DNA from: Naegleria gruberi
Lineage: Eukaryota
Assembly: GCA_000004985.1 (NCBI GenBank)
Contig: GG738935.1
Strand: one strand, 5' to 3'
Length of the DNA: 64,000 nt
A program made the position numbers and the translations under genes. Of this stretch, positions 2-64,000 are shown piece by piece. How positions within the stretch are numbered: position 1 is the first letter of the stretch; the number at the start of each line of letters is the position of its first letter. The notes below the pieces were generated by a model. That model was not told the origin of the DNA. It worked only from the letters and a program-made list of their open reading frames with translations, and did no database searches.

Positions 2-3000
2 AGTCCTATTCAAGAAAGATTGGCCGAATATATTCAAGTTTATTATACCTATTCAACATCTAGTGAACAATATAAAATCAGAGAAGTATTGACAACGGAG
101 GATACTAATCCATGTATCATTCTATCAAATTTACTTTTACAAATTTCTAAAAAGAGTGTCAATGTGTTTGTTGAAGTATTTCAATGGACAAGTTTGTGGA
201 AGATTGTGATTGATATTTTCAAGAATTTGTCCAAATTTGATGAAGAAAGAATGAATATTGAACATTTTATTCAATTCTGCAATTTTACAAGTTTGTCTTT
301 TGGTAACATGTTTCTTCATGCTTCCAAGGATATTAGAAAATTGATAGAATTGAGTTCATCTAAGGTTTTTATGGAAATGATGCAATATTTGGAACAGTTT
401 GTAAATAGTGCTGAAAATGAATCAAAGAAATTTAAAACTTTGGAAAAGGTTGCAATTTTATATGTGATTGAAATTTATGTTTGGGGTCTCTTTACATCTC
501 TCCATTTAATTCCAAATTTGTTAATTGAATTCCAACATTGTGATGGATATGATTTGCTGAAGAAAGTTTTCTATGCCATTAACAATTCTGAGAAGAGCGA
601 ATCATCTCAAGATTGCTTTCTTTTACAATTCCAACAACAAAAAATGTTAACAATATTGCATGTAATGATTAATCTTGTTTTAGAATTGACAACACATATT
701 CAATTGGTTAATCAGGAAGAAGCTATTCAGGAACAACTTGGAAAGTGTAAGAGAAATCAACATGTTTTTGGGCTATTGGTCTATCTTTATAATCATACAG
801 ACATGTCCAAGATTGGAAGTGATTTTTTATGTAAAAGAGAGTTATTAGATCACTTACTCTCTAATTTGACACTTTTCCACGAGGAATATTTCAAAATTCT
901 TTACAATAGTGAACCTTTCAAGTATATTTGTGAGAATTTTACTTCTACATCAAAGGAAATGCAAATTCAAGTTTTAAAAACTTTTGATCACTACATTCAA
1001 TTATTCACTCTATTAGATTCATCTAATGAAACACAAGTTGATGAAAATTTAATATGTAGAGATTTTAATGAGTATCTCAAATTGTTACTGACCAATCATG
1101 ATATGTTTTTAGACTCAATTATGAGAGTTTGTAATCATTTGATATCTAAAATTCAGGACAAGTCCATTTATCACAAGATTCAACTACTTTTTAGAAATTC
1201 AGGATTTACAAAATTAATACTTCAATCTATTGATATCAAACAAAGAAATAATCAAGTTATGGCAAAACTAGTACAACTAATTTATTTATTCTTAGAAGGA
1301 AATTTAGATAATCACAAAGATTTTATGGGTCAATTAACTCCAAAGTCAAATCCACTCTACAAATTATTGTATGATGAAGAGTTGATTGGAGAAACATTAC
1401 CTGTCATCAAAATGATTGTTGTTAATGACAAATCACAAACATGGGACTTTATTATATCAGATTTATTGGAAATTATGTTTATTAACAATCTAGATGAATC
1501 TAGTTTCAATTCAATGTACTCTAACATTCATCAATCGCACAATTCAAGTGTTAAATTTTGTGAAAAGCACTTGAGAATGTGTGAAAAAATCTTATGCTGC
1601 ATTAGAAAAATGTTTTTGGAGAATGAAAATGTAAAGAATTCCTTTAGAAAATGTAAAGGATATGAAAAGATTATCAACTTACTTGTTCTAAATAGTACAA
1701 ATTTAGAATGTTACGATTTAGTCTTTTCCATTGTCCAATCATGTATTAATTTACTTATACTTTCAATGAATGAGAATTCAGACAATGAGATTTACTTTAA
1801 AAAGTTTATTACATTCTCTTCATTATTGTCTCCATTACACAAATGTGGATTTGTTAAGAGTTATGAACATGGTATTAATCTGACTATGAATTTGTTACAA
1901 TTCTCAGTTATGGACTATGGTTTATATGAACCAAATAATTCTGATAGATTTAGAAAATTAATTGAAGAAAAAGTTCTCTTATTTGAAAATCCTGAAATGA
2001 TTCCAGAGGTAATTCTTAAATTATATGGTAGAAATCTGAGTGAAATTGATCCAAAGTTATCAAATTTCCTTGTTGATATGCTTTTTAGACTTGTGAAATA
2101 TTCAACAAACAGACATCGTTTGTCTAGAGCTAAATCTCTTTTAATTCTAATGAAGGAATTTACAACAGTTCTATTGGAGCCTTCTCACTATCTTTCTAAT
2201 AGAATTACCAAATTATTAATGCTCCTAGGTGCTCACAATTTTTCTCCTCGTGAAATGCAATACTATTTTACATTGTTCACACCTGACAGATTGAATACTA
2301 TTATTCAATCATCAAATAATAATGGAAATTCCCTCACTAGTACCACTAATTCAAATAGTTTCATTTCAATTTTGAATAGCAGTGGTAACAGTGGTAGTAA
2401 CAGTAATAGTAATAGTACTGAAATGATTGCAAGTTCACCTCTTCCAATTCTACCTTCCACCAAAACAATTAATAATTTATTGAAGACATTACTTGAATTG
2501 GGTGAACAAACTTTTATTCCAAATTATTATATTGACTTTTCTCCTCTCAACAAGGACAAGGTATTCCGATATGATGATTTGACTCAACTCAAGAGTAAGA
2601 GATTGAGACTCTTCTCTAGCTCTTCAAGTAAGATGGCTCACGATAGAGAAGAAAGAATTTTACTGAAGAGAACACTTAATACTTTTTCATCAATTTTATT
2701 CCCAAAGATGAATTATTCTTCATGGCCGTCCGAGAAGGGACATACAACTACTTTGTGGTTCAGAATTGAAAGTAATTCCAATTCCAAGATTAGTTTATTC
2801 AGTTTCTCTTCTCATGTCAATTCAATGGTATTTAATGTTTCAATGACACCTGATATGAAATTGAATATAGAGATGGAAAGAACAAATGAAAAATTAGAAT
2901 GGACAGAAACATTTTCAAATTATGAATTCAAACTCTATCAGTGGTATTTTATTGGTATTAATCAACAATTAATTCAATTACAAGATAAGATTGAACACAA

Positions 3001-6000
3001 GTTTGGATTATTTGTAAATGGTTTTCATGTTCAGGAAGTTGTTCATCAAGAATCTATTGACAAATCTATTATGGATATGTTCAAATCATTCTTGAGTTTC
3101 TCTCAAACAAGTTTAGAATTTATTGTTATGGGATCAAATGCCTATGACATGTCAAAAACAGTTAATCAAACAATGAAGAGTGTTAATAAGAGATCAGGAT
3201 CATTGAAATCAACTCTTTCAATCAATACTTCAAATATTGCCTCCAACTCATCAACAAGCGTTGGTCTTCATATTCCTAGTCCAATCAATAATAATAACAC
3301 TACTAATAATTTATTATTGAATAGTGCTAGGAGTAGTTCCAGTAGTTTGAGTTCAAATACAGCACCAGTACATGGACATAATGCAAATGTAACAGCCCAA
3401 TCTCCTTCAGATGAAGATAATTCAGCACTAGCTAATCAACAAGAGAAATTATTCACTTGTCCAGCATTCCAACTTGGTAACATGTTCTTTATTGAAGAAT
3501 GCTTGAATGATGAAGAAATGTACATGATGTATCATTTGGGTCCTAATTATATGGGCAATTTTGATGAAGATTTATCTCAATACTTTTGTAATGAAATGAT
3601 TAATGAGGAAAGTGTTGTAAAATTCAAGAATAAGATTTACTATATGAAAGATTGCTCAAACAATGTAGGTTTGAGTCAATTAACAAACAGATTTGTTTTT
3701 GCATTTTCATCAGTGGATGCTAGTTTAATTACAAGAATAGCTCAACAATCACAATCAAATTCATTGGACAGTGTTGATATTGTTTTTAGTAATAATAAGA
3801 AAAAGAAGATGGCTTCCTCCAATACTAGTAGTAGCTCCAGCTCGACATCAAACAGCTCATCCAAGGTTGCAGCTACACCTTCTGATAGTAATGCCTCTAC
3901 ACCAATGTCTGTTGGTTCTCCAACTCCCTCTCCATCAACTGTTACTGCTTCCTCTTCCTCTAATAGCAATAACACTGCTTCTAGTGATGCTAGCTCTTCA
4001 AGTAGTAGTGGTAGTGGTAGTGGCAGTGGCAGTAGTAGCAATAGCAATGTTGTTTATAATGTTTCTGATATTAGATCATACATACCTAATAGAAATTACA
4101 ACAATGCCAATGCACTCAACTATCAAAAGACAACTAATTTTACTTCAATCAAGTGTTACCTTTCTGGTAAAACAACACTTGTATCAAAGTGTACATTTAA
4201 GGGTAATTTATATGTTATTGGAGGAATGAAAGCAATTTTAGGTCTTTATGCCAAGATGAAAGATCCATCAAGTAAGATTTACACACTCCTATTATTATCT
4301 TATTTGATGAAAAACAACTCGCTCAATACTTCTGAAATGCTAAGATTGGGAGGATATGACATGTTAAATTATCATTTCCTTTCATCTAAAGATAGTCAAT
4401 TTGAAATTACTCCATCAGTTCTATTAGCACTTTTAGTAATGTGTGGACTTGATATTCCAAATGATGTCATAGTCAATTCAGTGAATCTTAAGGTGAGAGA
4501 TATTTGTAAGCGCGGAGTTATTAATAATTTTATGGCATTTGAAAAACTCTTATTAGATTATAGAATTTGGCATACCAATGCTAAAGTTGATACTTTGAAG
4601 AAAATGTTAAAATGTTTGGCAGAGTTGGTTTCCTCTTCATTCAGATCTAAAGTTAATGAACATCACCGTGCTATTTTATTAACAACGGCAAATGGTGTTA
4701 AAAGATTGCTCTTTGCCATGTCTCAATCATATGTAGTTGGTGAAAAGATTGATTGGCCAATTAAGATTATTAATCCAACCATCAAGATTCTCAAATGCAT
4801 CATTCCAACACCAATTTCAATGACCTACGTTTATCCAATTGTTCAATATATTATTTTAACTCATCATCAAGATTATGCTCAATGGATGAATGAAAATAAT
4901 ATGAACAACAATTACATGCCACAATTAACAACAACAACAACAATAGGAACAAGTGAAGATGGTTCTAATAATCATCTAGACAGTCATTATGGAAATGTTG
5001 AAATTATTGAACCAAGAAAATCAGTATTGAATATGTTCTATAATTTGATAGAAGAGGCACCTGAAGATGTGTTGGAAGATTTCCACTCTGTTTTGCCAAC
5101 AGGACAAATTATTGCACTTTTAAATACCAAATCAAATCTTATAAGATGTATTCTATTGAAAATGTTAGGAGTTTACTTGTCGAGAAAGGAAACACTCAAA
5201 GATCAATTTATTAAGAGTAATGCTGCTCATTTATTGACATTACAATTGTTAGAAGTTGGAAATCCTTCTCTCTTAGAATTCCAAGTTATGTTTGATTTAA
5301 TGTTGGGTCTCTTCAATAATAATACGACAACTGCAGCAGCTGCTGATTATTCAAATGATTATATAGCATCTCCTGTTAAAACGAGACGAAACAGTATAAT
5401 TCTGAGTTCTGGTGCCACAAGTGGTGGTATTGATTCAATCGATGATTTATTAGAATTAGGAGAGGGTGATGATGATAAGACAGCCCTCCAGAGAACATCA
5501 CTTTTCCTTCCTACCTCAATTTCTCATGCAGCTTTCTTATTACCAAAATCTACATCAGGTTCTTGTTCTTCTAATGGTAGAGATTCTTCTGATTCTTCAC
5601 CAACAAAGAAGAGATCAAGATCAGTTTATTTCAAATCCATGAATGCTGCTACAATTGCTTCATCACCAACCAATACAAACACCGCTCTCAACTCTACTGC
5701 AACTAGTAGTAGTAGTAGTAGTACTACTTCTGGAAAATCGCTTCATATTCCTAGTAGTAGTGATAGTCCTATGGGATTTACAAACTATAATACTACACCA
5801 AAAGGTAGTAGTAGCAGCAGATATATCACTACTAATAGATTGAAGAATTCAATTTCTCTCATTAAATATGAATTCTCTCAATTTGAATTCAGAGAATTCC
5901 TCACACCAATTCTAAGACTCATACCATGTATTAAAGATATTGAGGAGAAGATTAACGTATTTGAAACTATTTGCAGACTTTTCAAGAATGGTGGTGAAAA

Positions 6001-10615: not shown

Positions 10616-12268
10616 TTAATCCTCCAAAATTGATTTGATTTTGTTGTCTGTTTCTTTTAATAAACCTTTCTTAATATTATTGAGCTCGTGATAAATTAAT
10701 TTGAAAACATCATCACCCAACCTCACAAATGTGTAAACTTGTGTGAATTGAATAAATTCATCCAAACAATCTCTCTTAGCTGCAATCATTGCCTTAAAGT
10801 ATGCTGCCACAACTTCTTTTGTGAATTGGAACTCTTCAGTCTTGGCACGTCTCATTAATAAATTAGCATCAATATAATTACCAGTCTTTTCGAAAATATT
10901 AAACATAATGATCAAGGTTTCCTCGTTAAATTTTCCAATGTGATGGAAAATTGTTTCAACTCTATCAAATCTTTCCTTAATCAAGCAATATTTCAATAGA
11001 CAATTTTGAATTTCCAAAACCTCAGTAACTCCACTCAACCCTACCAAATCATGGGCGACTTCAAAGATATCAATATATTTACCAACTCCAGGAATTTTAG
11101 ATTGAACTGAAGGATCGAATATATTCACATCTTCATTCAAAAATTCAAGGAATAACCTTATATAAACTTGATTGATATTTCCATTATTTAAAATGTTTTG
11201 GAAAATCTGTGCAAGTTGATCCTTGTCCATGATTCTGATAGCATTAATAATAGATTTAAATACCAATGGATGATTATAGAAAAATAGTGGTTCTACATTT
11301 TGAGTATCCGCCAGTAATACTTTGAAATTTTCAAACAAATTAGTTGGAAGAGCCTCTACATCAAGTACAAATGAATTGGCATACATGTCTCTTGTGTATT
11401 TTTCCCAATTTCCTTTTGTAAATAATTCATCTTTGAATGTGTCCTTCACCAAATTGAAGAAGGAATAAATTAATTTAGATGTTCTATTGTTGTATAAATT
11501 ACTACAAATGCTCTTGTACATTTGTAAAGTTGGCAATACTTCACCTGTTTGTAATTTAGTTAATAGAGGTTTAATATCATCATACATTGTTTCCTTTTCC
11601 ATAAATTTGAAAATAGCTTCAAAAACCTCAACAGTATATAATGAAATTGGTCGATTAATTAAAACTTCTCTAAAAATTGAAATACCCATATTATAGAATT
11701 GACATCTTCTCTCACCAAACATTTCATATAATTTAACAATATAAATTTCATTGGATTTTCCTTTAAATACCTTTTCAAGTGCACCTCTATGTTGTTTCAC
11801 TTGTTTATATTGAGATTCAATAGTACTGTGAATATTTCCTAAAATTGAAATTTTAAATAAATAAATATTCAACTCTGCAATGACATTCTTTGATTCCTCA
11901 CTATTTTCAACCTTTAATTGATTGGTAATCTCCTTACTGACAAAGTATGATTTTGATACAAATTCATTATCCACCAAACTAGTATTTTGTTCAACCATCT
12001 TTAAAGTACCATGTAAAACATTAACAATAGAATTAACATGTTCCGAAGCGTTAAATGTTTTTCTATTTAAATGTTCATGTAAATCTCCAACTGTAAGTGA
12101 TGAAACATCAATTATACTTTTGGTAGAATAATTTAAAACTCCCTCTCTACTATTGTAATTATTAGTATTAGCATTATTAGAAATATTTAATGATGATAAC
12201 CATCCAGACTTGGCATTCACTCTTCTTCCGATAATTGATGATGATGATGATGGAGTGAGAATTTTCAA
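10616..12268 (-). CDS. Hypothetical 550-aa protein, probably alpha-helical repeat (PPR/TPR-like), with a Ser-rich basic N-terminus suggestive of a mitochondrial presequence.
   Basis: Continuous ORF. N-terminus MKILTPSSSSSIIGRRVNAKSGW. The rest is rich in regularly spaced hydrophobic/aromatic helical segments. No recognisable catalytic motif. Confidence 0.35.
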   Translation of the reverse strand: MKILTPSSSSSIIGRRVNAKSGWLSSLNISNNANTNNYNSREGVLNYSTKSIIDVSSLTVGDLHEHLNRKTFNASEHVNSIVNVLHGTLKMVEQNTSLVDNEFVSKSYFVSKEITNQLKVENSEESKNVIAELNIYLFKISILGNIHSTIESQYKQVKQHRGALEKVFKGKSNEIYIVKLYEMFGERRCQFYNMGISIFREVLINRPISLYTVEVFEAIFKFMEKETMYDDIKPLLTKLQTGEVLPTLQMYKSICSNLYNNRTSKLIYSFFNLVKDTFKDELFTKGNWEKYTRDMYANSFVLDVEALPTNLFENFKVLLADTQNVEPLFFYNHPLVFKSIINAIRIMDKDQLAQIFQNILNNGNINQVYIRLFLEFLNEDVNIFDPSVQSKIPGVGKYIDIFEVAHDLVGLSGVTEVLEIQNCLLKYCLIKERFDRVETIFHHIGKFNEETLIIMFNIFEKTGNYIDANLLMRRAKTEEFQFTKEVVAAYFKAMIAAKRDCLDEFIQFTQVYTFVRLGDDVFKLIYHELNNIKKGLLKETDNKIKSILED

Positions 12269-21923: not shown

Positions 21924-22968
21924 TTACATTTTATTTGGTTTTAAGGTAATAATTACCAGCACTAGTGCCATTAGCAGAATTACAATTTCAAGAATTACTT
22001 TCATAAATCCCTTCTTAGTTTCTCCACCGTCATTTGAATCAAAGCTACTACTAGTATTCGAAACAGTTGATTCATTTCCATCACTGTCACTATCATCACA
22101 ATTCTCAATCATTTTCAATATTGATAGCATGTAATATATTCTGATCAGTGGTTTGATTTTCACACCAATTGCCTTATTCAAAATCACTCGCTCAATAAAT
22201 TTGGATTCCAAAATTGGTAGATTTTCTCCATATTTCAAAACAATTCCTTGTTCTTGCATGAATTGTTTTAGAAAATCTTGATTGGTGCAAAAGTTCAGTA
22301 TTGTGCTAATGATATTCCTTGTTAAACATTCTTGAGCTGTATTTCCATTCCTAGATTCTCTAATATTTACATCAATTCCATTCTCTATTAAATATTTAAC
22401 AATTTCAATACTATTGTAATGAGTGCAATAGTGTAACCATGAAAAATTGTGAGATTCTTCACAGATATCATTAATGTGAACTATTCCATTATCAATTAAG
22501 TATGTAGCACATTCCAAATTATTTACAAAACAACATTTTCTCATTGCTATCAATGGATTCAATCCAGAATCTATCAATACTTTCAATTCGTTCGCCTTCG
22601 TCTCCTTTCCAATACTTGTATCTTCAAGCATTTTACTATTTCCAGTTCCTTTATATCTTTCCTCTTCAACTCTATAACAAGTAATCATATTAGTAATTCT
22701 TCTATCTTTTGGAACTGACACAAAAACAGTCNNNNNNNNNNNNNNNNNNNNNNNNNNNNNNNNNNNNNNNNNNNNNNNNNNCCGATCTCAACATTCCATG
22801 AAATGTTCTTTCGAATAAAATTGCATGTGTGCGATCACTTTTATATGAAGTCAATGAAAGGTCAATACTTCCATCATCATAATCAATATCATTTTCATCA
22901 TTTTCTTCTTGTTGGCTCAATTTTTTCAAAGAGGCCGATGTTAATCTTGCATTTCTTGTTTTGTACAT
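21924..22968 (-). CDS. Ankyrin-repeat protein with a C-terminal transmembrane anchor. The CDS spans a 50-N scaffold gap (22732-22781), so the true length is unknown.
   Basis: ATG at 22968 (MYKTRNARLTSASLKK...). Downstream of the gap: ankyrin repeats (YLIDNGIVHINDICEESHNFSWLHYCTHYNSIEIVKYLIENGIDVNIRESRNGNTAQECL) and a C-terminal hydrophobic segment VILEIVILLMALVLVIITL. Confidence 0.6.
22732..22781. other. Scaffold gap (50 N) inside the ankyrin-repeat gene.
   Basis: Run of exactly 50 N. Confidence 1.
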
Positions 22969-53035: not shown

Positions 53036-56000
53036 TTAGATAGACATTCCAACCTTTGAGGTGAATTTTTCTCGTTCTGATTTCAATTTTTGCCAAGAGG
53101 TATAATCTTTAGAAACTCCAAATCTTGAGTAGGTATCAGAAAGGTTTAGTACAATGTCGCTTTTTAAAGTGTCCAAAGCTGTTAAAAATTCTGATTGTGA
53201 AGCTTGTTTTTCAAATAGAGATATGAATAGTTTTCTGGTAGGATTTGGAATATTGACTTCAAGGGGACTAGATGCACTCAAATATTTATCGCGGAAAGCT
53301 GAACAATCTTTGATAAGATTGGAAGATGTGTTGAGTTCCAAAATTTCATTGTAACATTTCAGATTCTCAAGGGAGAATTCTTTTGTACAAAAATTTTCGA
53401 ATAATTTGGCACCCAATTCATCACTCAATAATTCTACTAATTCTTGAGTAGCATCCTGTTCCTTCTTGACTGAATTTCTGTAATTTTTAAAGTAGAAAAT
53501 GAGTGACAATCCTCCAAATACGAAAATGTACAACACAAAGTAAACTACTGTGAGAATCAATCTGATAATTTCCATAATTAATGAGATTTCAAAGGTTGAA
53601 ACAGTAGTACTCAACTTGGTGCTGTAATTTGAAGTAAAAAGCCCAAGATTTACAATACCGAATACATAGGAAGATACCAATACTAACAGACATATAATGA
53701 ATAGTAGAGTTTCAGATCTGAATAAAAGTGGATCGTCCATGATAAAGAATCTATAACCGTTCGATGAGTATTCCTTGACCAGCTTCACAGCCTCTTCAAC
53801 TGAAATTATGTCCTTCTTATCTTTTCGACTTGGAACATCTTGCAATTCCACAGTTGACTCTTTCAATCCACTATAGGAACCAGCTTTAGATTTGTTCATT
53901 TTCATGTATCTGTTATAACTCAAAATCAAATCCAAAACGAACATGACAGAAAGAGCTACCAATGCAAGAACTAATATAGCTCCAATAAAACTGGAGGTAG
54001 CTATCGTATAGATTTTAGAGGTTAGTCCAGAAGAGTTGTCAATTACCTCTTGTGAAATTCTAGCAGCTGCCATTCCTCCCATGTAGAGGAAGATGAATAC
54101 AAAGAGTAAAAGAACAGAAACAATGTAAATACCTTTAGAGGTGATGATATTCAACAATTGGAGAGATTTTGTTTCTGATCTTTGCAATAGGGAATACATA
54201 TTTCTGAGGAGATGATATCTTGTAGTTTGAATTAAAAAGGAGAGAACACTAATGCTGAGAGCTACTCCCAAAATGGTAGAAGAAATGTAGGTCAATGAGT
54301 TGAGTGCTATTGGAGAGTAATCAGATCCTGAAACAGAATATCCAAGCATGACAGCGCTTTTTGTGACACTTCCCAAAAGAGCGTCCAAGAAAATGCATAC
54401 CATTCCAATGAAAGGAGCAACATATTTAGCTTTGATTGGCTGCTGATTTCTGTAAATGAATAGCAAAATGAGCATGACCAAACTAACAATGCAGATAATA
54501 AACCCAATACCTATTTGGAATCCCCACAACACGTGATAGGCAGTCTTTTGCTCAGAGGTATAGTTTTTGATATTTGACAAATCTTGGCTTAGTTCTACAA
54601 ATACAGCAAATTGAGTTGTGTGGTATGCCTTCATATTAATCGAGTAGTAAATTGTTCCATTGACATCTTTTGTTGAGTAGCTGCTGACAGTACATCCATT
54701 TGTTCTCCAATCCGATACTGTTTCATTCCAATATCTACAAGTAATATTCTCCATGGAAATGTTGTTAGTTTTGAGAATTGAATCCAAACTAGATGCTTCT
54801 ACCTCAAAGTTCAATGAAATTGGATCTGAAAGATCTGAAAGTGGAAAATATTCTCCGCCATTATCAATACATCTCAAAGACAATACGTTACTGACAATTT
54901 GTGAGCTGTTATCTTGATTCTTGTCGGAATTTGGATTCTCACTGTAGAGCACATATTCTGTACCAAATAGATCAGAATCGCTCACTGCTTGCTTCTTTCC
55001 TTGAACCACAGTTCCTGGCGGAACAGTTATGGCATTTGAGCTACCCATGACCACCTCACTACTGTTATAAGTCGATCCATAATCTTTTCTAACAATGAAG
55101 GTCAACTTGTCAGTGATGAGAGTTTTTTCCTCTGAAGGTGAAATGGAATCCACAATTGAAGCTGAAAGTAATTTGATAGAACTGATAAGCTTTGACCTAA
55201 TGGATTGGTTGATTTGGATTATATTGGATAAGGAAGAGCATACACTAGAAATGAATGAGGAGTCAATTCTACCCAATGGTTGATTTTTAGAACTTTCTCC
55301 TGTGAATGAGTTGGATCTTGCATCAATTCTAATAATGTTAACAAACTTTTGAATTCCACTCACAATGTCACTCTCCATATCGATGGCCATTGTTGACAGA
55401 TATTGAGTCGCATTGAAAGACCACATTTCCAAAATTTTAGCTGCAACCATGATATTCGAAACTGCCTTTGAATATTCAGTCTTGTTATTTGGATTAGTGA
55501 TTGGTGTTTCAATAGTGTTCAACAATGAAATAAACACTCCAAATGCTGATCTCTGAATGAGGTCAATATATTTTGGATCACCTCCATCATAGGCTTTCTG
55601 TACCATTCCCATGAGTGATTTGATTTGAAACGAATCGACGGTACCCTGAATAACTCTATTCCTTAAATTTTCCATGAATGGATAAACAGAATCGAGAGGA
55701 ACTGGACAAACACACATTCCACCACTCAAAACAAACACCCTATTCAATCCATAATATCTATCATAAACGAATAGCACTGGATTTTGTCTATATTCCAATG
55801 GTGCATTATCCAAAATCATTGTATTATTAAAATGTTCTGCATTTCTTAGAGAAAATCCTGGAGGAAGGTAGGATTTGTGTAGCTTGCTGGAAGAATATGG
55901 TGTAATCTGAACTACATATTGTGAAAGTTCAGAATTTGGAATGTCAGCCATTCCTGATTTAATGACAACATCTGAACCACCTGTCAAACGAGTAGCAAGT

Positions 56001-57193
56001 TTTGCATTCACATAACCAAAGGCAAACATCAAGTTGGAATCTGCTGGAGTATTAGATTGATCGTCATACACAAATGGTGCTGTGACATTGAAGGTGAATT
56101 CTATTGTCATCTTTTCCACAAGTGGTGAAATTGAAAATACTGAATTAAATTGAGCAAATTGAGGGAAAAATCTTTTTGGTGTTTTCAAATAAATATCATT
56201 CGATCTTCCAATCATGATTGAAGTAGCACTTGTGCTATTCCACCATTTGGCAACACATGAAATTCTATAAACAGAGTCAAAATCAAAATCTGCATCTTCT
56301 GAGAAGGTCAACATGGAAATTCCCAATTGATTGGTTTGCTCTCTATCCTGAAGATAGTTAGTGACTTTCTCATAATTTCCCAACGTATTCTTAATCAAAC
56401 TAGTCTTTGAAAGAGAGCTTTTCATTTCCATTGTTTTATCACTTATTTTCACAATGTCCCAATTATATCTAATATTGGCATTTGAATTTTTCAATTTAGT
56501 ATTCAACTTGGCATTGATAAAAAAACTCTTCTTCATTGGCATGAATCTTTCACCTGTTTGTGAATCGATAGCTGGCTCGGGAAGCATTGGATTCATGGTT
56601 GAAAACGAAGGCATAGACAAATTTAGAGCCATCATTGAGTATCCACTCGTCAGAACAGTGTCCGTTCGATTTGTATTAAAAACATCAATCTCAATTTGTG
56701 ACAGAACTGGATTTGCCACTCCCAACACTGAACTCAGCACATTTAATAAAACTCCAGATTGCAATCCCATATTCACAACAAAAGTTCCCTCTATAAATTG
56801 TGCTGTTTTTGGTGATACTTTCACTGTGACTGTTTGTGAGAGCAGATCAACAGTCGGCAAATCACATGTGAAAAATTCCACTAAACTTGTTGAATTTGAC
56901 AAGAGTGGTGACACCAAAACTCCACAATTTATCACCTGGAATGTAGGTAGCAAGGGAATTGTCTGAAGACCTATTATTTGTGTCTTGATATAAAAATAGG
57001 GCGTTGTAGTAGTGGTCTGATATCGGTTCGTGCCAGAGATTGTGGCCGATGGATAAGAGATGAGAAAAGTTTTAGGTGTGGTTGAGTAGATAAAGTTAAA
57101 AATTGATGTTTGGAACGCGAGGATTGTTTGTGAGAAACTGCAACAACCCAATAAGAGGAGAAGAATGATGGCAGTTGCCAGTTTAGATGACAT
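53036..57193 (-). CDS. Giant receptor (1385 aa): signal peptide, 830-aa ectodomain ending in a GPS/GAIN-like motif, 7 TM helices, and a C-terminal RGS domain (adhesion-GPCR-like with an RGS fusion).
   Basis: ATG complement of 57191-57193 (MSSKLATAIILLLLLGCCSFSQT), immediately 3' of a 50-N gap. GPS-like CRYWNETVSDWRTNGC...YYSINMKAYHTTQFAVFVE (compare C..W.....W...GC......HL|T.FAVLM) at about nt 54600-54750. Seven hydrophobic helices between nt 53500 and 54560, with a roughly 90-aa ICL3. The RGS box ELVELLSDELGAKLFENFCTKEFSLENLKCYNEILELN...FRDKYLSASSPLEVNIP at about nt 53080-53430 matches the RGS consensus (F..FL..EFSEENL.FW.....Y). Confidence 0.6.
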   Translation of the reverse strand: MSSKLATAIILLLLLGCCSFSQTILAFQTSIFNFIYSTTPKTFLISYPSATISGTNRYQTTTTTPYFYIKTQIIGLQTIPLLPTFQVINCGVLVSPLLSNSTSLVEFFTCDLPTVDLLSQTVTVKVSPKTAQFIEGTFVVNMGLQSGVLLNVLSSVLGVANPVLSQIEIDVFNTNRTDTVLTSGYSMMALNLSMPSFSTMNPMLPEPAIDSQTGERFMPMKKSFFINAKLNTKLKNSNANIRYNWDIVKISDKTMEMKSSLSKTSLIKNTLGNYEKVTNYLQDREQTNQLGISMLTFSEDADFDFDSVYRISCVAKWWNSTSATSIMIGRSNDIYLKTPKRFFPQFAQFNSVFSISPLVEKMTIEFTFNVTAPFVYDDQSNTPADSNLMFAFGYVNAKLATRLTGGSDVVIKSGMADIPNSELSQYVVQITPYSSSKLHKSYLPPGFSLRNAEHFNNTMILDNAPLEYRQNPVLFVYDRYYGLNRVFVLSGGMCVCPVPLDSVYPFMENLRNRVIQGTVDSFQIKSLMGMVQKAYDGGDPKYIDLIQRSAFGVFISLLNTIETPITNPNNKTEYSKAVSNIMVAAKILEMWSFNATQYLSTMAIDMESDIVSGIQKFVNIIRIDARSNSFTGESSKNQPLGRIDSSFISSVCSSLSNIIQINQSIRSKLISSIKLLSASIVDSISPSEEKTLITDKLTFIVRKDYGSTYNSSEVVMGSSNAITVPPGTVVQGKKQAVSDSDLFGTEYVLYSENPNSDKNQDNSSQIVSNVLSLRCIDNGGEYFPLSDLSDPISLNFEVEASSLDSILKTNNISMENITCRYWNETVSDWRTNGCTVSSYSTKDVNGTIYYSINMKAYHTTQFAVFVELSQDLSNIKNYTSEQKTAYHVLWGFQIGIGFIICIVSLVMLILLFIYRNQQPIKAKYVAPFIGMVCIFLDALLGSVTKSAVMLGYSVSGSDYSPIALNSLTYISSTILGVALSISVLSFLIQTTRYHLLRNMYSLLQRSETKSLQLLNIITSKGIYIVSVLLLFVFIFLYMGGMAAARISQEVIDNSSGLTSKIYTIATSSFIGAILVLALVALSVMFVLDLILSYNRYMKMNKSKAGSYSGLKESTVELQDVPSRKDKKDIISVEEAVKLVKEYSSNGYRFFIMDDPLLFRSETLLFIICLLVLVSSYVFGIVNLGLFTSNYSTKLSTTVSTFEISLIMEIIRLILTVVYFVLYIFVFGGLSLIFYFKNYRNSVKKEQDATQELVELLSDELGAKLFENFCTKEFSLENLKCYNEILELNTSSNLIKDCSAFRDKYLSASSPLEVNIPNPTRKLFISLFEKQASQSEFLTALDTLKSDIVLNLSDTYSRFGVSKDYTSWQKLKSEREKFTSKVGMSI

Positions 57194-57196
57194 TTT

Positions 57197-57246
57197 NNNN
57201 NNNNNNNNNNNNNNNNNNNNNNNNNNNNNNNNNNNNNNNNNNNNNN
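57197..57246. other. Scaffold gap (50 N), 3 nt upstream of the receptor gene ATG.
   Basis: Run of exactly 50 N. Confidence 1.
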
Positions 57247-58642: not shown

Positions 58643-59566
58643 TTATTGAGAGAATTTAATGAAACAATCAAATAATTTGTTGGTAAATCGATATGGTTTT
58701 GGTGGATATAAATGTCTTTTGAAAAACCAAAAGCAATCATCAATAGTTGGTCTCTGTTCTGGATCTTCACTTGTCATTTGATCAATGAAACTGTTCACAA
58801 GTGACAATATTGAATCTGAAACCTTAACCCGTTCCAATATTTGAGAAATAGTTATTCCCAACGAATAAATATCCAAACTTGGTAAATAGTCAAATTCCTC
58901 ATCACCAATTCTTATTTCTGGAGCTTTGATTTCTGAATTATAGGGCTCTTCCTTATAACCAATTTGACATGAACTCCAAGTTCCTCCCAATTTCACAAAA
59001 TATTTCCCTTCCTCATCAGAATAGATATGTATATGAAATGGAATGATATTTCTGTGAACAAATCCTTGTTCATGCAATGATTTCACACCCTTAATTAGTT
59101 GTAAAACCCACTCCAATAAAATCTGATCACTCTCATTGCAATGAATAACCTTCTCGCCATTCAAAAATTCTAGAAGAGAGCACTCAGATTTTGGAATAAC
59201 AATTTCAAGTTTTGAAAAGGATTCTTCCACAATTTGATGATCATTTCTCAATATTTCAACTTCAAGATAGCTGTCAGATATTTGATTATCAGGAACCTGT
59301 TCAAAAATAACATCTACCATCGGAACGAGATAGGGAGAAGATTTCACAATTAAATTCATAAAATATTCATTCCCAGATTGAAATGAATACATGAAGAATT
59401 CCTTGTCTGTGTTCTTTTCTTTGACAGTCGAGACCAAAAAACCTGAACCATTCTGATTGATGCTAATGACCTCATATTCCTTCTTGCTTTTGCAAAGAGA
59501 GGATGTAGAATGGTTGTTTAACATTTTTTTAAAGTGTGAAACAAAACGTGATTGATATTTCAACAT
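58643..59566 (-). CDS. Protein-kinase-like domain protein, predicted pseudokinase.
   Basis: The C-lobe is recognisable: HEQGFVHRNIIPFHI has the catalytic-loop HRD replaced by HRN, and VKLGGTW has no DFG. APEIRIG (APE), DIYSLGITISQIL (subdomain IX) and DPEQRPT (subdomain XI) are present. The N-lobe Gly-loop is degenerate (NQNGSGFLV) and the VAIK lysine is unclear. Start moved to the first ATG at 59566; the track start is TTG. Confidence 0.5.
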   Translation of the reverse strand: MLKYQSRFVSHFKKMLNNHSTSSLCKSKKEYEVISINQNGSGFLVSTVKEKNTDKEFFMYSFQSGNEYFMNLIVKSSPYLVPMVDVIFEQVPDNQISDSYLEVEILRNDHQIVEESFSKLEIVIPKSECSLLEFLNGEKVIHCNESDQILLEWVLQLIKGVKSLHEQGFVHRNIIPFHIHIYSDEEGKYFVKLGGTWSSCQIGYKEEPYNSEIKAPEIRIGDEEFDYLPSLDIYSLGITISQILERVKVSDSILSLVNSFIDQMTSEDPEQRPTIDDCFWFFKRHLYPPKPYRFTNKLFDCFIKFSQ

Positions 59567-60190
59567 AACCAAATAAACCTGGTTTTACTTTAGATTTAGA
59601 ACAATACATGAAGTTTCTTCTTTGTGAGTTCAGCTTTAAAGACGAGGAAAAGTTTCGTCTACATTTTTCATGACAGAGTTCCTTCTATTTTTTGAAACCT
59701 GTACTGGTAATCTGACATTCTAATTGTATGCAATCAACACCTAAAATCTTACATTCCAAAATGAACTTGTTTCTTAAACTGAAAAAAAATGGACAAACTT
59801 GATCATACGCAAATAAATAAGCCACAACCAAATGCTCAAAAAGAAGATATTCATTCGAAAGAGAGCATACTGGAGAAAATGAGAAGGGAAGGAAGGTTAA
59901 TAGAAATACAATTATCACCAGCAGAAGCCGAAGAATATTATGAAATGCATGCTTGAGATTCGCAAAACTTAACCTAAATGCCTAAACCTTCAAAAACATT
60001 CAATAACTTTGATGGTAGGGGAGAATGCCATCTTGTATTGTCAAGGAGATGATGATTGATCAAGAAAGAACAGGTGTTGATAAGGTAATTTATCATTTTT
60101 GCTTCTTGTTGGAGATGGTTATTTCAAACACCTAATACAACATTCTCAAAAAGATTCTTTCTCCTTTTCACCTTATTAATAATTGAAATT

Positions 60191-60240
60191 NNNNNNNNNN
60201 NNNNNNNNNNNNNNNNNNNNNNNNNNNNNNNNNNNNNNNN
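60191..60240. other. Scaffold gap (50 N) on the 3' side of the TNP2-like element.
   Basis: Run of exactly 50 N. Confidence 1.
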
Positions 60241-60289
60241 TACCGTTTAACAATTTGAAAAATACCCTTGGAAAATTTAACAATATCAC

Positions 60290-62109
60290 CTAAACATTAT
60301 GAGTGTCAGCAACCTTTGAAAAAAAAAGATACAAACCATGTTCGTATTGGAAGGTGAATTGTCTCACCCTTTTCAAACTGGTCATTTGATGAATGGACCA
60401 ATTCTCCAAAGCCTTATGATCCATGTTGGCCTTTCCTCCATAGATGGAGGAAGTAAGAGAGCCCATCAAATCCTCCAACATGAACGTAGAGTTGGTATAG
60501 AGAGGGCCCAAATTCCATATCGATCTTGTTTTAAAACAATCAATATTATATGAAATTGTTGCATTCTGAATAACTAGTAGAGTACTTACAATGGAAAGTG
60601 AAGAACAGTATGAGAGGCCATTGTAATATCCTCCTCACCAAATTCAATTTCCACACTTCGCAGCAAGTTGAATGCCATTTGCAATAGACTTGCCTTGGCT
60701 TGCTCACTCTTCTCACTAGGATTCATGATGAGTCCTATAAAAGTTTCGACACTTTTTAAAATGTTAAAGTGGTTTTCAGAAATAATATTCTTGAAAACAT
60801 CCTTACAATAGGCAAACAACATGTAGTATTCAATAGCTTTGAACTTTGCAGCCTCATTCAAGGAACGAATCTCTCTGTGATACATGGATGGAGTTTCAAT
60901 AAGTTTGATGCGTTCTTTCAATTGTTAAACACCAAGGGGTTGAGTTCATATTTTTCCTTCACCACAATACTTACCATCAATGCTGGGAATTAAAGTCTTG
61001 TACAATGAACAAATATTCTTCAAAATCTTTTTACAAAGACCCTCTAAAAGATTGTGCAAAATATCACAGGCTACCTGAGTAGTCCATCTAAAATAGCTGA
61101 GCTTGAGGAGAATTGAAATGCCAATCACACCATCGAAGGAAGAAATCTCATTTTTTTGCAACTTGCAAAACTGTGGCATCATGTTATTCCAAACTCTATT
61201 GACTCCACTATTACAACTCGAATTTCCTACACAATACAATACACCAGTGTTTTCTCCCTTCTTTTCTCCTGTATGTAGACACCATCTACAACCACACAGG
61301 CCCGAGTGACCATTGATTTGCAAGAGATCTTTTGCAGCAACCAAATCGACAATCATTTGAAAGAGGCGAACCTAGTAACAAATCCAATTATTTGTTTCAC
61401 ATGTATATAATAATAATAATTGGCTTGTTGTCCAATGAATCACACAATCAACTTACTTTTAGAAAGAATTTACATCCTCCCTTGGTAACAATAGTCAAAC
61501 CCTTGTCCAATTCATTGAGTTCATCTATAAATTTGGACAAGAGTATTTGATAGGGTATTTTGTGGTTTGCATATGCTGCCAATGAAGTCAATGGATAGGA
61601 AAATCTGTGTTTCAATCCAATCTCATTTATCCAAAAGAAGAGAGGATTGATGGATTTAGAGTTGGACTTGTTGACAGAGCCACCATCAGTGCCAGCACTA
61701 ATGGTGAGGCAAATAGTGTTGGGATCATCTCGAATGACCCACTTGTCTGTAATTCTCTTATACTCGACCCCATCAACACAGTCCTTAATGAAATGTTTCT
61801 GGCCCACTGTAGGAATGTTCGTATCAGTAGCTGCAGATAGGTGTGATTGGAATCTTCTCAAGCCTACCCTATCAACCATATTCGATATGCACGAGGCAAT
61901 ACTTTTAGTCCAAAAGTGTTGAATATTCTCCTTGTTCAATACACCCTCAACACTACACTGCTCGCAGGAACAAGCCTTCAGAGTTTCACCTTTAATAATT
62001 GTCAAATGCTTTGAACAATAAAACACCTTTTCATACTCATTGTTGACATTGTGAATTCTACTGATGAGAATATCTAGGGTTGGAATCTTTTTTCCAATCG
62101 CCGAGTACT
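60290..62109 (-). mobile_element. TNP2-family (Transposase_21 + DUF4218; EnSpm/CACTA-like) transposase gene with three GTAAGT..AG spliceosomal introns. The N-terminus is lost in an assembly gap, and the locus is bounded by 50-N gaps at 60191-60240 and 62110-62159.
   Basis: Exons (minus strand) 62109..61457, 61371..60975, 60914..60590, 60524..60290 with introns of 85, 60 and 59 nt (donors at 61456, 60974 and 60589, all GTAAGT). The spliced frame is continuous across all four track ORFs (61448..62026, 60946..61356, 60586..60921, 60290..60511). Transposase_21 core: DGVEYKRITDKWVIRDDPNTICLTISAGTDGGSVNKSNSKSINPLFFWINEIGLKHR...YQILLSKFIDELNELDKG (compare NVRLGLSTDGFNPFG..S.YSVWPVILVNYNLPPW....YLRPLIDELKELWEG). 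A C/H-rich segment CGCRWCLHTGEKKGE..VLYCVGNS and a DUF4218-like ACDILHNLLEGLCKKILKNI follow. Confidence 0.6.
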
Positions 62110-62159
62110 NNNNNNNNNNNNNNNNNNNNNNNNNNNNNNNNNNNNNNNNNNNNNNNNNN
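62110..62159. other. Scaffold gap (50 N) interrupting the 5' end of the TNP2-like transposase ORF.
   Basis: Run of exactly 50 N; the transposase frame is open right up to the gap. Confidence 1.
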
Positions 62160-62306: not shown

Positions 62307-63119
62307 ATGGCTCATGCAAGATTATGCCAAGTTGAACAGAATGTTATTGATGTTCAACAACAATGTAAAGTTTCATGTTCTTCACTCATCAGTTGTGAAG
62401 AAACTGAAAAATCATCAACTACCAAAACTCTGCAGTCCTGTCTGCAGAGTAATTCGAGTCCAAAACCTTCTCTCATCCTAACTGTGTGTAAGAATGGTAA
62501 GGAGTATTCAATGAGGAAGAGGGAAAACAAGTCCACAAAACGACCATCCAACAGATTGGAGGAAACTCAAAAATCCAAACGTCGTCACTTGGAAGACTTT
62601 CCTCTTGTTTTAACTCCAGTTTGCTCCTCTTTCAATCTTCAATCACAAGATTCAATTTACTCACCAATCATCATTACTCCATGCACCAGCAATTTGAATG
62701 ATATTACCACAGAAATCTCTGGTATGCCTATTACTCCAAAGAGTTCCTCTGAAATAAGTGCTAGTTGTGATGAATTCTCTCAAAGCGATTCAGAAGAGCC
62801 GTCATCTGTTGCTACTGTTGATTCCCGTACGACTCAAAACACTAGACACCGTTCTAATTCTAATATTGTTCAAACTTCTTCTGAAGTTTCCACACCAGTC
62901 ATTCCATTAACTAGTTCGACAATTACACCATACTCCTCCACAACAACTTGCTCCATAACCTCCCAATTCGATTCCCTTTCTTCTCCTTCCTCTCCTTTGT
63001 CTTCGTGCCATCCATCTGAAAATTACACTGATGACGAAATTAATATTTTCTTCAATAGTTGGATGGATTGTTACGAACTCAAAAAGAAACAATTCATTAA
63101 TTCGAGAAATAAATTATAA
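62307..63119 (+). CDS. Hypothetical Ser/Thr-rich 270-aa protein (Cys-containing N-terminus, basic patch KSKRRHLE, S/T-rich C-terminal half).
   Basis: ATG at 62307 in A-rich context; continuous ORF; no recognisable domain. Confidence 0.4.
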   Translation: MAHARLCQVEQNVIDVQQQCKVSCSSLISCEETEKSSTTKTLQSCLQSNSSPKPSLILTVCKNGKEYSMRKRENKSTKRPSNRLEETQKSKRRHLEDFPLVLTPVCSSFNLQSQDSIYSPIIITPCTSNLNDITTEISGMPITPKSSSEISASCDEFSQSDSEEPSSVATVDSRTTQNTRHRSNSNIVQTSSEVSTPVIPLTSSTITPYSSTTTCSITSQFDSLSSPSSPLSSCHPSENYTDDEINIFFNSWMDCYELKKKQFINSRNKL

Positions 63120-63681
63120 CAATTGTGAAAGACAATGTAATCATTTATGTCTGTTGCCTTACTTTCATCTTTAAGCCGCACCACTGTCAAATATACAAAC
63201 AGCTTGGCTTTCAGATTGGTCAGAGCATAACCGGTTTTCTTGACGGCAACCCCAAAAAGAAGAGAAAGAAGATATTCAACAGGTTTAGGGGGTCGGGATT
63301 TTAATATTCTCATGTCTTGTTTACTATTTGATTGGGAGATGGCAGACAAAAGTTGCCACATTGCATACCAGCAGATTATTCTAAATGTTCTTGAGTTTCC
63401 CTTGTAAATGACGAAAAAGAAGAGAACATTTCCAAGAAATGGTTGTTTGAATTTGTAATTGAGAAACTTGTAACACTCTTCTGGATTCTTCCAAACATTG
63501 TAAAGAATAATTAAATTGTTCTCCTCACTTGCTTGTGAATTGCTTTAGAAATGATGAATGAATTTGAAAAATTCCAACTTACAATACTCTGCTGACGTCC
63601 TGAGTACGTCATACGAAAACATTTCTTACCAACTTGCTTGTTCAATGTTCATTCTCTTTCTATTGTTTAATAGTAGAAAAA

Positions 63682-64000
63682 ATGCTTCAACAACCAACAG
63701 GTTCATCCTCTCAAGTTGATGAAGATGTTGATGATCAACCAAATGAAAATGTTTTAAATGATGTTTCGGAAAGAGTAGTTTCTACTAATAATGTAGATGA
63801 AATAGGACCATTTAAATTGGGTGATTCTTCATTGGATCATGTAACTGATGTTCCCGAAGATGTTTTAATTCTCATATTTTCATTCCTTGAATATAGGGAA
63901 ATTATTTTAAATATTTCATTGGTAAATTCAACCTTTTTGTATACATCGAGGAATGATGCATTGTGGAAACAATTTATTAGAAATAAAAAATTCATCTCAA
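63682..64000 (+). CDS. F-box protein, 3' partial (runs off the window end).
   Basis: ATG 63682; acidic N-terminus then F-box VPEDVLILIFSFLEYREIILNISLVNSTF..ALWKQFI. Confidence 0.55.
   Translation, partial: MLQQPTGSSSQVDEDVDDQPNENVLNDVSERVVSTNNVDEIGPFKLGDSSLDHVTDVPEDVLILIFSFLEYREIILNISLVNSTFLYTSRNDALWKQFIRNKKFIS

Follow-up and report, generated by a model that had tools for sequence, protein, structure and literature searches.

Plant CACTA/En-Spm transposons have CACTA termini, make 3-bp target duplications and express TNPA and TNPD from one transcription unit; Transib elements make 5-bp target duplications. CACTA/EnSpm is grouped with Mirage and Chapaev in the CMC superfamily (Yuan and Wessler 2011, summarised in PMC4079192 and PMC12730594), and the motifs of the CACTA/EnSpm-Mirage-Chapaev(-Transib) clade are a DDE core with C(2)C and [D/C/H]-x2-4-H motifs located between the second Asp and the Glu (PMC12730594). 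Chapaev elements make 3–4 bp duplications and have CAC...GTG termini (PMC4079192); across the wider clade the termini are CA..TG and the duplications span 2–5 bp (PMC12730594). In the genus Naegleria, a RepeatModeler/RepeatMasker survey of N. lovaniensis lists 38 'CMC-EnSpm' copies making up 0.23% of the genome (PMC6125883, Table 3), and one estimate puts the transposable element content of both N. gruberi and N. fowleri at 0.28% (bioRxiv 10.64898/2026.06.24.734286). Here we describe a spliced transposase gene in a 64,000-nucleotide stretch of N. gruberi contig GG738935.1 (assembly GCA_000004985.1), AT-rich eukaryotic DNA that is referred to below as the window. The gene occupies the minus strand of a 1,869-bp piece of sequence (60241–62109) between two runs of 50 N. 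We consider it likely to be the gap-truncated transposase gene copy of a cut-and-paste transposon from a Naegleria-specific clade of the CMC superfamily. The region is an internal gene fragment that covers about 70% of the coding sequence. Our literature search found no paper describing the ends, target-site duplications or partner gene of this Naegleria element.

The first-pass annotation of this DNA proposed that three GTAAGT..AG introns, 85, 60 and 59 nt long, connect four consecutive open reading frames (ORFs), and this can be read directly from the sequence with one correction. A continuous frame from the three GTAAGT donors requires exactly the AG acceptors listed in Table 1; the first two introns have the lengths proposed, but the third is 65 nt long, its sole frame-restoring AG being at 60526–60525. 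Starting where the 5' gap ends, the joined exons form an open frame of 535 codons, and the three quoted protein motifs (LTISAGTDGG, INPLFFWINEIGL and FIDELNELDKG) are all present in the product. It coincides with an N. gruberi gene model on deposit (P0001, XP_002668972, NAEGRDRAFT_76136, 'predicted protein'), a 459-residue entry that begins at the first Met past the gap and uses the same three introns. Because the spliced frame matches the deposited model exactly, we regard the splicing pattern as real. The frame also matches a homologue from N. fowleri with E=2e-154, far beyond chance.

Table 1. Coordinates of the window gene, its flanking gaps and the related elements
Feature	Location	Strand	Remarks
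50-N scaffold gap	62110..62159		conceals the gene's 5' end (~172 codons, judged against N. fowleri) and perhaps everything else in the element
Exon A (partial)	61457..62109	-	frame still open at the gap edge; first complete codon 62107-62105
First catalytic Asp, D141	61687-61685	-	exon A; invariant, in 'GTDGG'
Intron 1	61372..61456	-	85 nt, GTAAGT (donor 61456)..TAG, phase 0
Exon B	60975..61371	-	second Asp, zinc motif, D-x2-H motif
Second catalytic Asp, D226	61347-61345	-	exon B; in 'VDLVA'
C(2)C zinc motif, C245/C248	61290-61279	-	exon B
D320-x2-H323	61065-61054	-	exon B; in 'CDILHNLLEG'
Intron 2	60915..60974	-	60 nt, GTAAGT (donor 60974)..AAG, phase 1
Exon C	60590..60914	-	'FKAIEY' motif with E378
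E378, candidate third acidic residue	60831-60829	-	exon C
Intron 3	60525..60589	-	65 nt, GTAAGT (donor 60589)..AAG, phase 2
Exon D (annotated)	60290..60524	-	stop codon 60292-60290
50-N scaffold gap	60191..60240		at the gene's 3' end; the window has no counterpart for ~50-60 C-terminal codons in the N. fowleri protein
Full-length element copy	L006:8073-12995		N. fowleri VFQX01000028.1
Full-length element copy	L001:8240-13115		N. fowleri
Full-length element copy	L007:8072-12904		N. fowleri
Full-length element copy	L008:4832-9856	reverse	N. fowleri
Internal-deletion derivative	L009:4381-9124		N. fowleri VFQX01000003.1; lacks element positions ~272-561 and 1898-3987
Partner gene	L002:1142-2788; L003:563-2131; L004:232-822; L006:8415-9914		on the minus strand at all four loci; divergent from the transposase gene

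The position of intron 2 is kept in all six lineages of the family. N. fowleri and the metagenome loci L002–L004, the three that reach that far, share the position of intron 3; locus L005 stops before intron 3, so intron 2 alone is visible there. Since the codon positions and phases of introns 2 and 3 are equal in the window gene, N. fowleri and L002–L004, both have long been part of the element lineage. N. fowleri lacks intron 1, as do the metagenome relatives so far as their sequences show, and this intron is therefore lineage-specific. A fourth intron of 47 nt (60336..60290, GTTTGT..TTTAG) is possible; it would replace the annotated stop, ending exon D at 60337 and continuing the frame through a fifth exon (60289–60241) into the 3' gap. 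This arrangement is plausible and is suggested by a few aligned residues in a short alignment to the N. fowleri protein. Introns are normal in eukaryotic transposase genes and are no pointer to domestication.

The protein had been assigned to the Transposase_21/DUF4218 family, with a missing Transposase_21 match named in advance as grounds for dropping that assignment. A Pfam scan of the 535-residue window protein gives no transposase family at E≤1, including Transposase_21 (PF02992) and DUF4218 (PF13960), and the same models find no match at E≤1 in the full-length N. fowleri protein (P0162) or in two metagenome proteins (P0003 and P0004). Membership in these Pfam families is thus not upheld; the UniRef label of the N. 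fowleri protein is all the same 'DUF4218 domain-containing protein'. The relationship to Transposase_21 becomes visible solely through a family profile, which we built from the six closest relatives (alignment A1) and used to search 1.84 billion representative proteins. At E≤1e-3 it matches 2,411 proteins, of which 671 reach E≤1e-10. Among 60 sampled neighbours of the profile, 51 match Transposase_21 (best E=3e-18), 42 match DUF1258, 10 match DUF4218 and 7 match Plavaka. We place the protein in the CMC superfamily because 51 of these 60 neighbours match Transposase_21. What survives of the original description as a TNP2/EnSpm-like transposase is therefore a spliced, uninterrupted frame of DDE type related to TNP2/EnSpm at the level of the superfamily, but not membership in a Pfam family.

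Conservation across the superfamily identifies the probable active site. We counted residues over 66 aligned superfamily sequences, using N. fowleri numbering. The first Asp (D293) is conserved in all 66, and the second Asp (D378), C397/C400, D/E466-x2-H469 and a Gly are each conserved in 65. Of the 56 sequences that extend far enough, 52 keep a downstream acidic residue in a 'KA.E' context (E/D522). The window protein keeps all of the conserved residues, as D141, D226, C245-x2-C248, D320-x2-H323 and E378. The Glu of 'LLEGL' is conserved within the Naegleria clade only, and for this reason E378 is preferred as the more likely third catalytic residue, an identity suggested by the alignment. Exon A also encodes a cluster of cysteines (C31, C46, C48 and C51) and a conserved E162 within 'WINE'.

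In the N. fowleri ATCC 30894 assembly (GCA_008403515.1), the homologue belongs to a recently active 4.9-kb DNA transposon whose anatomy and multi-copy state are directly observed. A cluster at 90% identity places it at no fewer than seven loci on five contigs, and we examined five of these (L001, L006, L007, L008 and L009). Four are full-length copies of about 4.9 kb, 95–99.6% identical to one another and with sharp borders; the fifth is an internal-deletion derivative (Table 1). The element ends in 17-bp terminal inverted repeats (CCCGAGCACTCGAAATT), the left repeat of L001 having T in place of C as its first base. All five insertions are flanked by 2-bp target-site duplications (TT, CT, TA, CA and AG), an outcome expected by chance with a probability of about 1e-6. 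Between the ends lie two divergent genes, one for a 499-residue protein with a coiled-coil tail and no recognisable domain and the other for the 727-residue transposase, whose gene has two introns. The two are currently annotated as unrelated hypothetical proteins. The CACTA termini and 3-bp duplications that had been expected are not borne out, as the complete N. fowleri copies show 5'-CCCG...CGGG-3' termini and 2-bp duplications.

Two further features of these copies may be mentioned. In L001, one T is missing from a T-run at 11985–12040 (GAGTACTTTATG, compared with GAGTACTTTTATG in L006) and the frame shifts immediately after the conserved intron 3; it is owing to this loss that the annotation splits the gene into FDP41_010536 and FDP41_010537. 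The missing base may reflect a genuine mutation, or else a homopolymer error in the long reads. The L009 derivative is present twice, once on each side of a 10-N run; the left flanks of the two are identical, and this looks like an assembly duplication and not two insertions.

Similar elements occur in metagenomes. Three contigs from two samples (L002, L003 and L004) encode proteins 40–53% identical to the window protein, and those at 48–53% are closer to it than is the N. fowleri homologue (45%). All three carry a homologue of the divergent partner gene (E=1e-18 to 1e-7). The partner proteins have in common a central region ending in 'EEF.VG....WSW'; the protein also has a low-complexity linker and a coiled-coil tail. 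A Pfam scan of the partner finds no domain beyond coiled-coil noise, and a homologue search with it recovers only N. fowleri copies. It may be the DNA-binding or regulatory protein of the element. In L002, a perfect 20-bp inverted repeat (CCCGTACGAGAGTTTTTTTA, at 867–886 and 5948–5967) brackets both genes and opens with CCCG, as do the N. fowleri ends; its flanks are AA and CA, with no clean 2-bp duplication. Two scans of Joint Genome Institute (JGI) metagenome contigs, first with a single protein and then with an alignment, gave no confirmed relatives. The nearest outgroups of the Naegleria clade are two metagenome proteins (P0008 and P0009), followed in third place by a protein from the transcriptome of Filamoeba sp. 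(P0011/P0155). Because the Filamoeba sequence is an expressed transcript of an amoebozoan, related elements are evidently transcribed in other amoebae. N. fowleri FDP41_010108 (P0017, 135 residues) is a more divergent fragment of the same superfamily.

A sequence search of solved structures returned no match. In an AlphaFold2 model of the 727-residue N. fowleri homologue, built with a 66-sequence alignment as input, the predicted local distance difference test score (pLDDT) exceeds 90 across approximately residues 110–650. Compared with solved structures, the model matches RAG1 best (E=1.4e-8, about 600 aligned columns), followed by the Transib transposase of Helicoverpa (H. zea; E=8e-6). Beyond these, all matches have E>0.7, so that RAG1 and Transib structures (6dbu, 6oem, 6pqn and others) are the only significant ones. 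The predicted fold is consistent with membership of the clade to which Transib and RAG1 belong. In the N. fowleri protein, the C-x2-C motif follows the second Asp at a distance of 19 residues (D378 to C397), the same spacing as in mouse RAG1 (D708 to C727). The resemblance has its limits: sequence identity is 10–12% and the template modelling scores (TM-scores) are 0.4–0.55, the Naegleria element has no RAG2-like partner, and the third acidic residue and the second pair of zinc ligands are placed tentatively in the Naegleria protein.

From this architecture, a mechanism can be proposed. The enzyme would be a DDE transposase with an RNase-H fold and a RAG1/Transib-like arrangement, in which D141, D226 and most likely E378 would coordinate metal ions, and a putative zinc module formed by C-x2-C and D-x2-H would sit between the second Asp and the Glu. 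In the complete element, the enzyme would be expected to bind the short terminal inverted repeats, cut the element out and reinsert it, with reinsertion making the 2-bp target-site duplication.

How, then, do the Naegleria elements compare with the described systems? They resemble the CMC superfamily in (i) the DDE core of the window protein, with C(2)C and D-x2-H between the second Asp and the Glu; (ii) the short terminal inverted repeats, second encoded protein and intron-containing transposase gene of the N. fowleri element and (iii) the 2-bp duplication of that element, which lies within the 2–5 bp range of the clade (PMC12730594). They differ in that the Naegleria proteins fall below every Pfam model of the superfamily and the second gene, transcribed divergently, encodes no recognisable domain. 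The 5'-CCCG...CGGG-3' termini of N. fowleri and L002 contrast with the usual CAC(TA)...GTG (PMC4079192) or CA..TG (PMC12730594), and the 2-bp duplication with the 3–4 bp of Chapaev (PMC4079192). The Naegleria elements thus match the duplication range of the clade and not its termini. The defining features of plant CACTA/En-Spm elements are likewise absent from the N. fowleri copies, which have CCCG termini, 2-bp duplications and two divergent genes. The N. lovaniensis repeats come from the same genus and carry the same superfamily label; that classification is automated, and no ends, duplications or genes are given (PMC6125883). It is tempting to see in the Naegleria elements a distinct, unnamed lineage of the CACTA/Mirage/Chapaev/Transib clade, marked jointly by CCCG...CGGG termini, 2-bp duplications, an obligatory divergent partner without a recognisable domain, a transposase invisible to Pfam and a full-length RAG1-like architecture, with the N. 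gruberi copy as the sole representative in its genome or a derivative retained by the host. We regard this broader proposal as rather doubtful.

The relationship with N. fowleri also indicates what the window copy lacks. The fragment aligns at 45% identity with residues 179–666 of the intact 727-residue protein and, if the unaligned ends are extrapolated, corresponds approximately to residues 173–680, so that about 172 N-terminal and 50–60 C-terminal residues have no counterpart. The first-pass annotation had supposed that the N-terminus is lost in a gap; this is correct for the 5' end, but the 3' end is cut as well. If the N. gruberi copy is built like its N. fowleri relative, approximately 2.4 kb on its 5' side and 0.85 kb on its 3' side would be out of sight. 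We infer that it has, or had, the same ends and partner gene inside the gaps, and that it is, or recently was, mobile.

Besides the Pfam result, several observations weigh against reading the N. gruberi gene as part of such a transposon. No evidence of mobility is visible within the window itself, both ends of the gene being in gaps. No CCCG-type terminal repeat is present in the visible flank 59400–60190, and the best inverted alignment between the visible flanks is unconvincing, leaving no convincing terminal repeat. An ORF beside the 5' gap (62307–63119) was considered as the partner gene and rejected, the hidden Markov model (HMM) search being negative and the hhalign probability 0.08%; it has a short 'SWMDC' motif in common with the N. 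fowleri partner. Searches of the 64-kb window and of 15 billion public proteins turned up no second N. gruberi copy. Finally, the visible coding part has no disabling mutation, a state that suits a gene retained by the host as well as it does a young element.

An alternative is that the gene is domesticated, a CMC-derived host gene present once in N. gruberi and kept intact for a cellular function, its ends lying in gaps by chance. Public protein collections hold one N. gruberi member of the family; its frame is intact over four exons with all conserved catalytic and zinc residues kept; intron 1, and perhaps intron 4, is lineage-specific; and the neighbours are ordinary genes, encoding a large RGS-domain protein that may be membrane-bound, a kinase-like protein and an F-box protein. 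A host gene of this kind is nonetheless unlikely. The 22-kb N. fowleri locus and the 64-kb window have nothing in common other than this gene, and a homologue of the partner gene adjoins the transposase gene in four related lineages (N. fowleri, L002, L003 and L004), the L005 contig being too short to tell. Terminal repeats are found in two lineages (N. fowleri and L002), with duplications and multiple copies in N. fowleri only, and two of the three introns are inherited from the element lineage in a class of genes where introns are usual. Of the mobile element and the domesticated gene, between which the first-pass annotation had left the choice open, the mobile element is the more likely.

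The state of the assembly raises a different possibility, that the sequence is either a dead relic, left truncated and immobile by an old insertion, or a small contig that scaffolding misplaced between gaps. The first-pass annotation took the flanking gaps as a possible sign of a repetitive locus; gaps are frequent on this scaffold, with four 50-N runs in the window (starting at 22732, 57197, 60191 and 62110). Three of the four lie inside 5 kb, which suggests a poorly assembled stretch; the contig in question is just 1,869 bp long with a gap on both sides, and the annotated stop shortens the protein by about 55 residues relative to that of N. fowleri. Set against this, 1.6 kb of spliced coding sequence runs without frameshift or stop and with its key residues conserved, whereas one of the N. 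fowleri copies has a 1-nt frameshift, and the style of the introns is that of the rest of the window. We consider either form of this explanation improbable, more so than domestication.

A gap-truncated copy of a CMC transposon is accordingly the reading we favour, of little general significance and of modest use to specialists. A transposase fragment is to be expected in a protist genome poor in transposable elements, the gene is already annotated and CMC-EnSpm repeats are already on record in the genus; this is an ordinary mobile-element remnant and not a new kind of system. The analysis does allow NAEGRDRAFT_76136 and approximately ten 'hypothetical proteins' of N. fowleri to be relabelled as transposon genes, the latter comprising FDP41_002016/002017, 010536/010537, 010941, 003763–003765 and others. 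The recently active 4.9-kb element may be of use in the pathogen N. fowleri as a strain marker or genetic tool. For the clade that gave rise to RAG1, the analysis contributes a discoban branch whose termini are unusual.

Some further observations concern the surroundings of the gene. The only ...CGGG in the 1.8 kb to the right of the 5' gap is at 63294–63297 (GGTTTAGGGGGTCGGG|ATTTTAAT; ...GGTCGGG), 178 bp downstream of ORF 62307–63119. It would qualify as an element end only with its counterpart inside a gap, and is otherwise unsupported. Weak matches at 44.8 kb and 42.4 kb were dismissed as a second copy, being ordinary-looking host ORFs; by eye they encode a putative E2 ubiquitin-conjugating enzyme and an ENY2-like protein. 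Directly downstream of the 3' gap is the kinase-like ORF (58643–59572, minus strand; Pkinase E=1e-8), in which HRN replaces HRD in the catalytic loop, so that the product is possibly a pseudokinase. The F-box gene begins at the end of the window (63850–63999, plus strand). The RGS-domain gene (53036–57193, minus strand) is an intron-free ORF encoding 1,385 residues with the RGS domain at its C-terminus (Pfam E=2e-9); its start abuts the gap at 57197–57246, and the protein has, as judged by eye, a putative signal-peptide-like start and several hydrophobic stretches.

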